Part shown: piece after piece, positions 2,556 to 5,500 of the stretch
Numbering within the stretch: position 1 is the first letter of the stretch
How the letters are laid out: each line of letters starts with the position of its first letter
Assembly (NCBI RefSeq): GCF_902652985.1
Contig: NC_047022.1
Span: 7,626,001-7,690,000, forward strand
Origin: Pecten maximus
Lineage: Eukaryota
Reading direction: 5' to 3'
DNA length: 64,000 nt
Notes under the pieces: model-generated
Told to the model about the DNA's origin: nothing
Seen by the model: the letters and a program-made list of their open reading frames with translations, nothing else
Databases searched by the model: none
Translations under genes and position numbers: made by a program

Positions 2556-5500
2556 CTGAAACAAAAATAACGATTAAGTTATGTGTTCATCTAATGCCAT
2601 CTCTACATGATAACAGAGTCTAAACAAAAACTATGCTAACATGCTAAGGAATGACTGACATGTCTTTACAATAAATTTTAGCTCAATTTTACAAGTTTTT
2701 TGGCCACAAGCTTATGATTCTGTTTATCACATAACTAGTATTTCATATCAATTTGAACATAGGTGAATACTTGCAATAACTTTTTTTTTAAGACAGGCAA
2801 ATTTCAACTCTGATAACTTATTTTTCTCTACAGAGACAATCGTACGTTGTATATTTCTTTTGTTGTCTGAACCTACTGATGAAATCACATAACTTATTTT
2901 TCTCTACATAGACAATCCTACAATGTTGTTTATTTCTTGTGTCATCCGAAGCTACTGACAATATCACATAGCACTATCAGACATACGTTGATTAAGGCAT
3001 CGCTGTATTACATAGAACAGACCAGTTACGTAATTATCAAAATTGTCCTTTGGACACGGGTATCGGAGATACATATCCTACAGTTAAACAAGACTGATCC
3101 ATGCCTGTAGGAAGAGAAGCACTTACCGACATGACATCAACGTAGAGGATGAAGAAATGGAGTCCCATAGACAGGGCCATGGCTCCTAACAACCACTTGT
3201 TACACCAGGGTGGCATCACCATCAGGGACTGGTTCTCAGACAAGCTGTAACAGCAAAAATCTTCTGTCTATACGTCAATTACAGTATGTCTATAATACAT
3301 CTACATCTCTGATCTTTGTATTTTGTATCTCAGACTAATATATTTTGTATCTCTGATTTTTGTGTTTTGTATCTTGGATTTTTGTATCTCAGATTTTTGT
3401 ACCTCAAATTTTTGTACAGGTTAATTCAACAATGGTTTAACACGGGTCATTTTTTAAAAACTTTACCCCGCCCCAAACTGCCGCAAAAATACTCTCTATA
3501 TCTCAATTACAGTATGCCTATGCGAATCTATATCTCCGATTTTTGTATCTCCAATTTTTGCACAGGTCAATTCTGCAATGGTATATTTCTATCTTTTTTT
3601 TTAAAACTTTACCACGCCCCAAATTACCAAAAATTATCTATTTATATGTCAATAACAATATTTCTTTTTAATCTACATGCAGACAATCCAATACTGGTCA
3701 TCTTTAAACTTTACCCAATCCAAACTCATCCCTGAAATATTTTGCTAGATCAATGAAAAACAGTTGTTTTATGCAATAATGAGCTGTTTTTAAGTTGTAT
3801 TCTGTCTGCAGATTTTTTTCACGAGTGTAAGAAATCTTATAAAAATCATTTCAAACACAACAACCATATCCAGGTCTTTAAACAAATATGTGTAATATTA
3901 TGTGTAACACAAATCTAAACTTCTAGTATAATATATAGTTCCTACAAACAGGTTTCCTCTTTATATCACATTCCACTTAATATAACCAAGCAGTTTCTGC
4001 TTCACATTCTTAATATCACTTGTTTAAGTTAATATCATGTTTTCATAAAATATTGATATATATATATATTCCTTATCTATATTGTCTACATAATATATCA
4101 CGTTATAAACTCCAGATAATACCATGCTCTTGAGTACATTTCTGAATTAAATTCATGACGTGTGTGAAATTACAAAATCTGCCCCAAAACATCCTTAATC
4201 TTAACATATCCAAAGTTTATTTTTATCTTATCTTCCTTTCAAATTTGTTTTAAAAAAATAATGAATTACTTCATCCTGTAAACATTTTATAAAGATATTG
4301 GCATTTCATAACAATTTCCAGGGATCTTTTGTAATTTTCAGTAATGGTGACATTGACCTCTGACCTTTGGACTTGGACAGTTACCAGATATTTTTAGTTC
4401 ATAATAATTGGCTCATAATTGTCCATCAAAGTATCTAGAACATAAGACCACTGTCAGGTTTTGAATAATTTCATATGTACAACTATTACTTCTGTTACAG
4501 CAAGAACTGAAAATATCCCCCCCCCCCCCCCCCCCCCCCTCCCGATACAATTTCTACCAGGTATTACTGTAAATAACACACTTATAATATATACTAGGAA
4601 TAAATTTCATGTTACTTTAAATAACACACTCCCGATGGGAAAGACATACAACATGCTATGTCTTTTTTATTATTAACACCCAGTTATTGACAAAGTAAGA
4701 AATTATTTATCATGCGTGTGTCGAAGCTAACATGCATTTTCCTCACCAGTTTAAGGGTCCGACTGGAGCGTCTACTCTCATATATACTCTTATTGTGGGC
4801 ATAGACTTGTCTAAAATTCAAGCACAGCTCACAGAAACAAAGCTTACCGAGGTGAGTGAACCTGGCAAAGATGAGTCAAGCTCACAGAGAAAATGTTCAT
4901 CAAAGTAAGCTTAGCTCACCGAGACAAACTGAACTCATCAAAACAAGTTCAACTCATCATGAAAAGCTTAGCTAACCAAACAAGTTTAATCTTATTGGGA
5001 AAAGCTTAGCTCACCAAAACAAGTTAAACTTATTATGAAAAGTTTAGCTCACCAAAACAATTTAAACTTATTATGAAAAGCTTAGCTCACCAAAACAAGT
5101 TAAAACTTATCGCGAAAAGCTAAGCTCACCAAAACAAGTTTAAACTTGCATTGACAAGCTCACCTGGTAAGCTCTGCTCACCGAGACAAGCTAATTCACT
5201 AAAGTATATAAGGAGTAGACGCCCCACAGGAATATGTGTCAGTAACCGGTACCACAAAGGGAAACAACTGGACATGCAAACCAAAACCCAATCCTCAGGT
5301 TTTTATTACAATAATCTCTAATATTTCATCTCTGGCCAAAATACATGATATTAAATTTCAGTGATTATTATTCCTGTTAATCTAGCAATGTAGACGCTGT
5401 CCAAGAAGAATTTCCCTCTGTAGTACAGTAGCCTTAACTGAACTCTGCCCTCCGTCTCGCAGCCGGATAAAAATGTGGAAAATGCACAAAAATAGCAATT

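Follow-up and report, generated by a model that had tools for sequence, protein, structure and literature searches.

The SERCA gene and its two alternative exons

The window, by which we mean the whole 64-kb stretch of scallop DNA analysed here, carries on its minus strand the sense strand of a gene for a SERCA-type Ca2+-ATPase, as judged by translation, and the features described below lie on that strand unless stated otherwise. Between constitutive exons at 8003..8088 and 3127..3244 are two exons of 134 nt, A ('24a', 7120-6987) with a weak donor and B ('24b', 6318-6185) with a strong one, both placed by translation and by joints in RNA contigs. They have the same length and phase, are adjacent, and are identical at 75% of nucleotides and 32 of 44 amino acids, and the pair shows the homologous, adjacent arrangement of mutually exclusive exons derived by tandem duplication. 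The peptide of exon A matches residues 871-914 of SERCA1a, a region that we take to span the disulfide-bearing luminal L7-8 loop and the first part of M8, where the Ca2+ ligand E908 lies; an Argopecten gene model is 100% identical to it. Two residues ahead of the Glu equivalent to E908 of SERCA1a, exon A encodes Thr where exon B encodes Val in the bivalve and gastropod models seen.

Isoforms containing A and isoforms containing B are both present in RNA contigs from six of six runs (run types mostly guessed), with a share of A between 0.08 and 0.55 when contig depth is used as a rough measure. Among the joints listed, those from 8003 to A (8003-7120) and to B (8003-6318), and from A (6987-3244) and B (6185-3244) onward, all occur in four of four runs drawn from four studies. 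The full joint table of the second set holds no A-B joint in any of its four runs, in contigs of a kind that lose rare forms. Exons A and B are spliced singly, without double inclusion; transcripts with both or neither would be expected to shift frame and to be degraded.

Several other elements lie nearby. The scallop models have multiple alternative C-terminal ends (window positions below 2438) that are freely combined with A or B, the form of SERCA splicing already known from invertebrates. A repeat of very high copy number (7725-7935), tRNA-like at one end, occupies part of the intron upstream of exon A and has a further copy at about 46717-46980; its end is complementary to the 3' arm of hairpin A, described below, at -37.3 kcal/mol, and the pairing 7931-7898/6699-6666 was set aside because its arm falls within this repeat. 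On the plus strand, two ORFs at 36298-36989, within a large intron, resemble remnants of DNA transposases.

Predicted fold of the introns following exons A and B

The end of exon B together with its donor (6165..6193, or -8 to +18) is complementary to an anti-donor strand at 4742..4767 which the first-pass annotation of this DNA did not include. This donor-covering helix, of which the exon B segment forms the 5' strand, has a pairing energy of -33.5 kcal/mol (z -5.1) that was reached by none of 25 shuffles; in a test of 22 donors, each taken from -8 to +25 and with three doubtful donors excluded, the other 21 gave z values from -1.1 to +2.0. No significant helix was found at the A donor in nine of ten loci, the exception in L019 being a palindrome match. 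One of 13 single-exon control donors (L052) likewise had a strong partner, and this counts against the model developed below.

In the partition function of 7000-4630 the donor helix, two helper hairpins, a dock with its favoured partner, and an outer helix are nested together with probabilities of 0.96-1.0. Helper hairpin 1 (5970..6164) pairs 6164-6133 with 6002-5970, and helper hairpin 2 (5686..5963), the strongest helix of the intron, pairs 5963-5921 with 5728-5686. Opening the donor of B in the predicted fold would cost about 11.6 kcal/mol, against 4.9 for that of A.

The dock (5237..5278, with UGCAUG 5278-5273 at its 5' end) had been proposed to have two competing partners, and this proposal was borne out. 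Selector b (5398..5438) is the favoured one, at -37.6 kcal/mol with 23 expected pairs, and selector a (6596..6627, containing GCAUG 6623-6619) is complementary to the dock at -27.7 to -29.2 kcal/mol, a match that none of 60 shuffles and none of 28 other tiles equalled. The same dock bases are thus complementary to one element after each exon, which is the arrangement of a dock with its selectors. Selector a is about 10 kcal/mol weaker than selector b, has 0.0 expected pairs at equilibrium, and in pairing with the dock crosses the donor helix as a pseudoknot. It was also suggested that RBFOX bound to the UGCAUG of the dock might bias the switch; such a bias is not evident, since the motif overlaps the helix end common to both selectors and is mostly predicted to be paired. 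Hairpin A begins 29 nt past the donor of exon A, its 5' arm (6890..6957) pairing with 6702-6633 (3' arm, 6633..6702) at a predicted probability of about 1.0 in most of its helices, and UGCAUG 6639-6634 lies in its base helix, where it is predicted to be paired.

The hairpin around the minisatellite

The outer helix reported previously, 5203-5222/4768-4788, was recovered with its 10 + 8 Watson-Crick pairs on the minus strand, and with G-U pairs becomes a gapless helix of 14 bp at -24.9 kcal/mol. Its arms occupy 5201..5226 and 4764..4790, the second abutting the anti-donor strand, which is flush with it. The four best gapless helices of the intron reach -32.7, -26.9, -24.9 and -24.7 kcal/mol, against -23.8 for the best control; the controls were the best helix of each of nine other window stretches and of eight shuffles (17 in total), and all were weaker. 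The inner helix was likewise found (5191-5158/4857-4823), and both helices attain a maximum pair probability of 1.00 in the partition function of 7000-4630. The outer helix shortens the path from the dock to the motifs downstream, as the idea of an RNA bridge had supposed.

Within these helices (4823..5191) the annotated tandem array is present at 4934-5147, although its period measures 38 nt, in 5.6 copies, and not the 39 bp given for it. The array is a member of a minisatellite family, of which a relative that is 67-75% identical and lacks the outer-helix arms is found elsewhere in G000; the related array on C1 (L002) lacks the +5 G of the donor-like words. An origin of the arms from a MITE or foldback transposon was rejected, as the exact-arm pattern occurs once in G000 and a DNA search matched the array part alone, in one other place, in transposon-copy searches of a kind that pass over common words. 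Given the single-copy arms, the armless relative of the array, and the contiguity of the dock-like island and anti-donor strand in related loci, we infer that the outer helix serves as a patch, specific to this lineage, by which an inserted minisatellite is looped out and the dock and anti-donor stay adjacent. Eleven donor-like words on the minus strand at 4746-5181, one per array unit plus the flanks, are all predicted to be mostly paired, and are possibly decoys or silenced cryptic donors.

Sense A>G changes account for six of eight substitutions inside the hairpin closed by the outer helix, compared with seven of 43 outside it (P 0.002); one is at 4773 in the 3' arm and five, at 5063, 5082, 5121, 5141 and 5168, are between 4823 and 5191. 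These counts omit two one-base gaps (6180 and 6184, in one contig of depth 4.9) that are likely homopolymer errors. Each of the six sites falls in a predicted A-U pair, a U precedes the A at five of them, and T>C against A>G within the hairpin stands at 6 to 1 (P 0.06). X1 and X3 have common alleles at 5182 and 5188 and differ at the A>G sites 5121, 5141 and 5168; X2 and X3, from separate studies, have two substitutions within the hairpin in common. Genes with an adenosine-deaminase domain are present in G000. The A>G excess, which comes from RNA contigs alone at a depth of 3-4 where alleles are another possible source, may be an ADAR footprint and fits A-to-I editing and, with it, a duplex in vivo. 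Variation is not measurably lower in the arms (seven in 559 nt against 24 in 1655 nt, P 0.84), which is a point against the model.

RBFOX-type motifs

The UGCAUG motifs at 4736-4731, 5278-5273 and 6639-6634 and the GCAUG motifs at 4715-4711 and 4656-4652 are all where the first-pass annotation put them, on the minus strand. Three of these form a cluster (4652..4736) whose members lie 6, 27 and 86 nt past the anti-donor strand; nowhere else in the 64 kb, on one strand or the other, do three GCAUG fall within 90 nt. Around the exon pair, the three introns together contain nine GCAUG where 2.9-3.9 are expected (P 0.003-0.02), with its reverse complement at expectation; for UGCAUG alone the enrichment is marginal, at four where 1.1-1.5 are expected (P 0.02-0.06). 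The fold prediction leaves the motifs largely paired, which counts against the model.

In the predicted fold, the long-range helices bring distal (U)GCAUG motifs near the exon, as in the RBFOX bridges described elsewhere. The earlier proposal that the bridge delivers enhancers to whichever exon is docked is not supported in that form. The strand beside the motifs pairs over the donor of exon B, and therefore ties them to B and not to the docked exon; the selector-a state is unpopulated; and the two analogues of this layout that have been tested repress the second exon of the pair (PMC12772994, PMC3585155).

Related loci

A donor helix is present in all four loci of the annelid-like clade whose contigs reach the site (L046, L019, L018 and L014), in each of which the B donor is complementary to a conserved island lying 1.2-2.6 kb further downstream; the contigs of L017, L026 and L010 end ahead of the island, and L039 resisted alignment. 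Across these four loci 63 of 72 cells of the helix are paired, compared with 31-38 once the strands are slid; positions +3, +7 and +13 show two-sided changes, and all four loci have a second helix as well. The compensatory changes are among related loci which, as close kin (115-126 of 134 positions of exon B identical), were counted as one lineage. In energy the helices of L018 and L014 beat all shuffles, that of L046 was matched by two of 40 and that of L019 by five of 25, both of these being weak. These introns also have helper helices (4/4), and directly 5' of the anti-donor strand and contiguous with it they carry a dock-like island; motifs follow the anti-donor strand, giving the order seen in the window. 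In L020, another locus with annelid-like peptides, the donor of the last exon is covered by a helix of unrelated sequence (z -4.8, none of 40 shuffles), and all five GCAUG motifs of the 2.7 kb seen sit just 5' of the partner strand.

The motif is conserved next to the distal arm, as judged by position without alignment between phyla: all six helix-bearing loci have a (U)GCAUG no more than 200 nt from the anti-donor strand. The four bryozoan-like loci (L013, L015, L016 and L021, whose exon A stands beside a bryozoan model in the exon tree) have no UGCAUG in either of their complete, short introns. Within 200 nt of the partner strand, a distance picked after viewing the data, the six loci contain 15 GCAUG against 4.6 expected, with P <= 3e-4 when one locus is taken per lineage; the overlapping control word CAUGC is enriched as well (P 0.003), but CAUGCA is not. 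UGCAUG is common in annelid-like introns generally, with 37 in 47 kb and 16 in the 9.2 kb following single-exon paralogues. Among the bryozoan-like loci no clearly significant donor helix was found, L013 and L015 having none and L021 a marginal one (2/40).

Further elements are shared in part. A UGCAUG lies at +57 to +67 past exon A in five of five loci of the annelid-like clade. An ACUAAY-type word, which we take to be STAR/QKI-like, is found beside the conserved UGCAUG (L046:7520-7570, L019:5660-5710, L018:3425-3465, L014:3475-3510); none occurs on the sense strand of the matching intron of the window. The annelid-like dock pairs well with an element after exon A in one of three loci, with shuffles doing as well in 1/40 cases for L046, 5/40 for L019 (weak) and 36/40 for L018 (absent). 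The bivalve-like L004 has a 12-nt exact match to the dock, including UGCAUG, and two 9-nt matches to selector a, which are suggestive only; gapped alignment of its introns with those of the window used settings too lax to be informative, and no significant donor helix was found in its contig, which stops at +372.

Distribution of the exon pair

Of 15 scallop models listed, nine contain A, five contain B and one contains neither, and database models with A or B are also found in oysters, Mya, Haliotis and Littorina. Models from Echinococcus, Macrostomum, Batillaria, Mytilus and a cuttlefish have A fused to B. At least two copies of the exon are present in 14 of 78 metagenome loci. The cluster is expanded on metagenome contigs with annelid-like peptides: seven copies, six A-like and then B, in L020:1056-9475, five in L022:751-3426, and at least three in L048:2051-3549. 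A second, single-exon SERCA paralogue occurs in annelid-like contigs (L025, L036, L037, L041, L043, L052, L054 and L055), its donors are weak and the intron that follows contains UGCAUG, which in three loci sits 12 nt ahead of the acceptor.

In an exon tree of 44 columns, in which the main forks are unstarred, the Cherax row is mis-cut and three rows are missing, the B exons of mollusc, annelid-like, bryozoan-like and flatworm rows group together (94/83, unstarred) with a sponge row within. This grouping lends weak support to the view that the A/B pair may derive from one ancient duplication. In two cephalopod models (P0003 and P0040) the A copy clusters with the B copy, a hint of homogenization between the exons.

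Discussion

On balance we lean towards a model in which the closing helix covers the donor of exon B and the adjoining RBFOX-type cluster helps to shut B off, so favouring A in cells rich in RBFOX. The helper hairpins, the dock/selector-b helix and the outer helix are predicted to collapse 1.4 kb of intron such that 4767-4742 closes on the B donor. Its donor being the stronger of the two and its transcription preceding that of the anti-donor strand by 1.4 kb, exon B would be the default whenever U1 binds before that strand is made. RBFOX bound at 4736-4652 would act with the helix in repressing B, and RBFOX at 6639-6619, kept by hairpin A about 30 nt from the weak donor of A, may activate A; pairing of selector a with the dock could be a second way to loop B out. 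The direction, repression of B in favour of A, is likely by analogy with SCN9A exon 5b and unc-32 exon 7b. In SCN9A a helix beginning 10-15 nt past exon 5b, with TGCATG right after its distal arm, suppresses 5b together with Rbfox2 (PMC12772994), and in Caenorhabditis elegans RBFOX proteins on UGCAUG in intron 7b of unc-32 favour exon 7a (PMC3585155), according to the available parts of these papers; the first also reports that RBFOX acts in the opposite direction on exon 5b of SCN8A, which is a point against the model.

The direction could also be the reverse. The dock may pair with either selector, the bridge bringing RBFOX enhancers to the chosen donor, and RBFOX beside the anti-donor strand may open the helix and activate B. 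That both selectors pair the same dock bases, that the first motif starts 6 nt from the helix end, that the annelid-like dock of L046 is matched by a conserved element past exon A (1/40 shuffles), and that RBFOX 3' of ENAH exon 11a activates that exon, as cited in two papers (PMC12772994, PMC10790352), are all in keeping with such a scheme. We nevertheless consider it unlikely, as selector a is unpopulated at equilibrium and its annelid-like counterpart is weak in L019 (5/40) and absent in L018 (36/40), the conserved element is specific to B, and in SCN9A and unc-32 it is the second exon that is repressed.

Somewhat more doubtful is the proposition that structure and the timing of transcription alone set the ratio of A to B, with (U)GCAUG incidental and the outer helix just neutralizing the repeat and its donor-like words. 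The near-palindromic motif is mostly predicted to be paired and is common in annelid-like introns, and the array does come from a minisatellite family and carry eleven donor-like words (4746-5181), mostly predicted paired; but GCAUG is enriched in the window on the sense strand only, and clusters at the anti-donor strand in three lineages with unrelated arms, including five of five in L020. It is improbable that the long duplexes are chiefly ADAR substrates, with A-to-I editing loosening them and thereby adjusting access to the B donor, for although the A>G excess in the outer-helix hairpin has an ADAR-like context, X1 and X3 differ at three such sites while sharing alleles at 5182 and 5188, and G000 has adenosine-deaminase-domain genes, the listed A>G changes include none in the donor helix or exon end, and the changes come from RNA contigs of guessed run type with the 6 to 1 ratio of T>C to A>G at P 0.06.

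Returning to repression of B by the donor-covering helix and its RBFOX cluster, a broader and distinctly more tentative picture may be drawn. The switch could be as old as the split between molluscs and annelids: a rod that closes over the B donor and has an RBFOX cluster at its base, inherited with the A/B duplication while every arm was rewritten. In the scallop it would have been patched by an ADAR-edited hairpin around a minisatellite, in one relative it would cap a cluster of seven exons, and its effect would be a tissue-dependent exchange of a luminal loop together with part of a Ca2+-binding helix.

Earlier work describes RBFOX bridges, docks placed downstream and stems that cover splice sites (PMC10790352, PMC6071210). 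Splicing of invertebrate SERCA is described solely at the C-terminus in the accessible portions of two reports (PMC3527596, PMC6987452), and the internal either-or exon, equivalent to SERCA1a 871-914, is present in mollusc and flatworm gene models in the databases. Literature on this exon pair or its structure was absent from the matches listed, which comprised titles and abstract openings, subscription journals lying outside their scope. If the model is correct, RBFOX bridges reach the Spiralia, in a form that blocks a donor directly, and a layout has been conserved across phyla without likeness of sequence; the SERCA A/B pair would then be a compact and testable case in which to ask whether bridged RBFOX represses or activates.

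The comparisons that follow are with the known systems as the available parts of the cited papers describe them. The Drosophila clusters of 14-3-3zeta, Mhc, srp and Dscam exons 4 and 9 resemble this locus in having a single downstream dock and a complementary element for each exon; the scallop gene differs in that its upstream selector is far the weaker one and the donor helix crosses selector a as a pseudoknot (PMC6071210, PMC10790352). In the stems of Drosophila CG33298 and Gug a distant strand covers a splice site, as is predicted here, although the source does not present these as cases of tandem either-or exons accompanied by an RBFOX cluster (PMC10790352). The bridges of ENAH exon 11a and KIF21A (Lovci 2013) share with this locus a long-range helix that brings distal RBFOX sites near an exon, but they concern cassette exons and activation, and the donor is not covered (PMC10790352, PMC12772994).

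Two further parallels concern pairs of alternative exons. In unc-32 exons 7a/7b, UGCAUG lies in the intron after the second exon of the pair, as it does here, but acts as a local motif working with UNC-75, and no long-range RNA structure is described in the parts of that paper available (PMC3585155). The SCN9A 5a/5b pair (ISRE1/ISRE2, Rbfox2) has an arm 89-533 nt from its partner, whereas the scallop arm overlaps the donor itself and has its partner 1.2-2.6 kb away, the relatives included (PMC12772994). Unlike SCN9A, the scallop gene is known in this respect from its sequence and predicted folds, helper hairpins close the gap, and the sequences of the arms are unrelated between lineages. The two nonetheless have in common duplicated either-or exons, an arm after the second exon, and a distal arm that is followed by TGCATG (PMC12772994).
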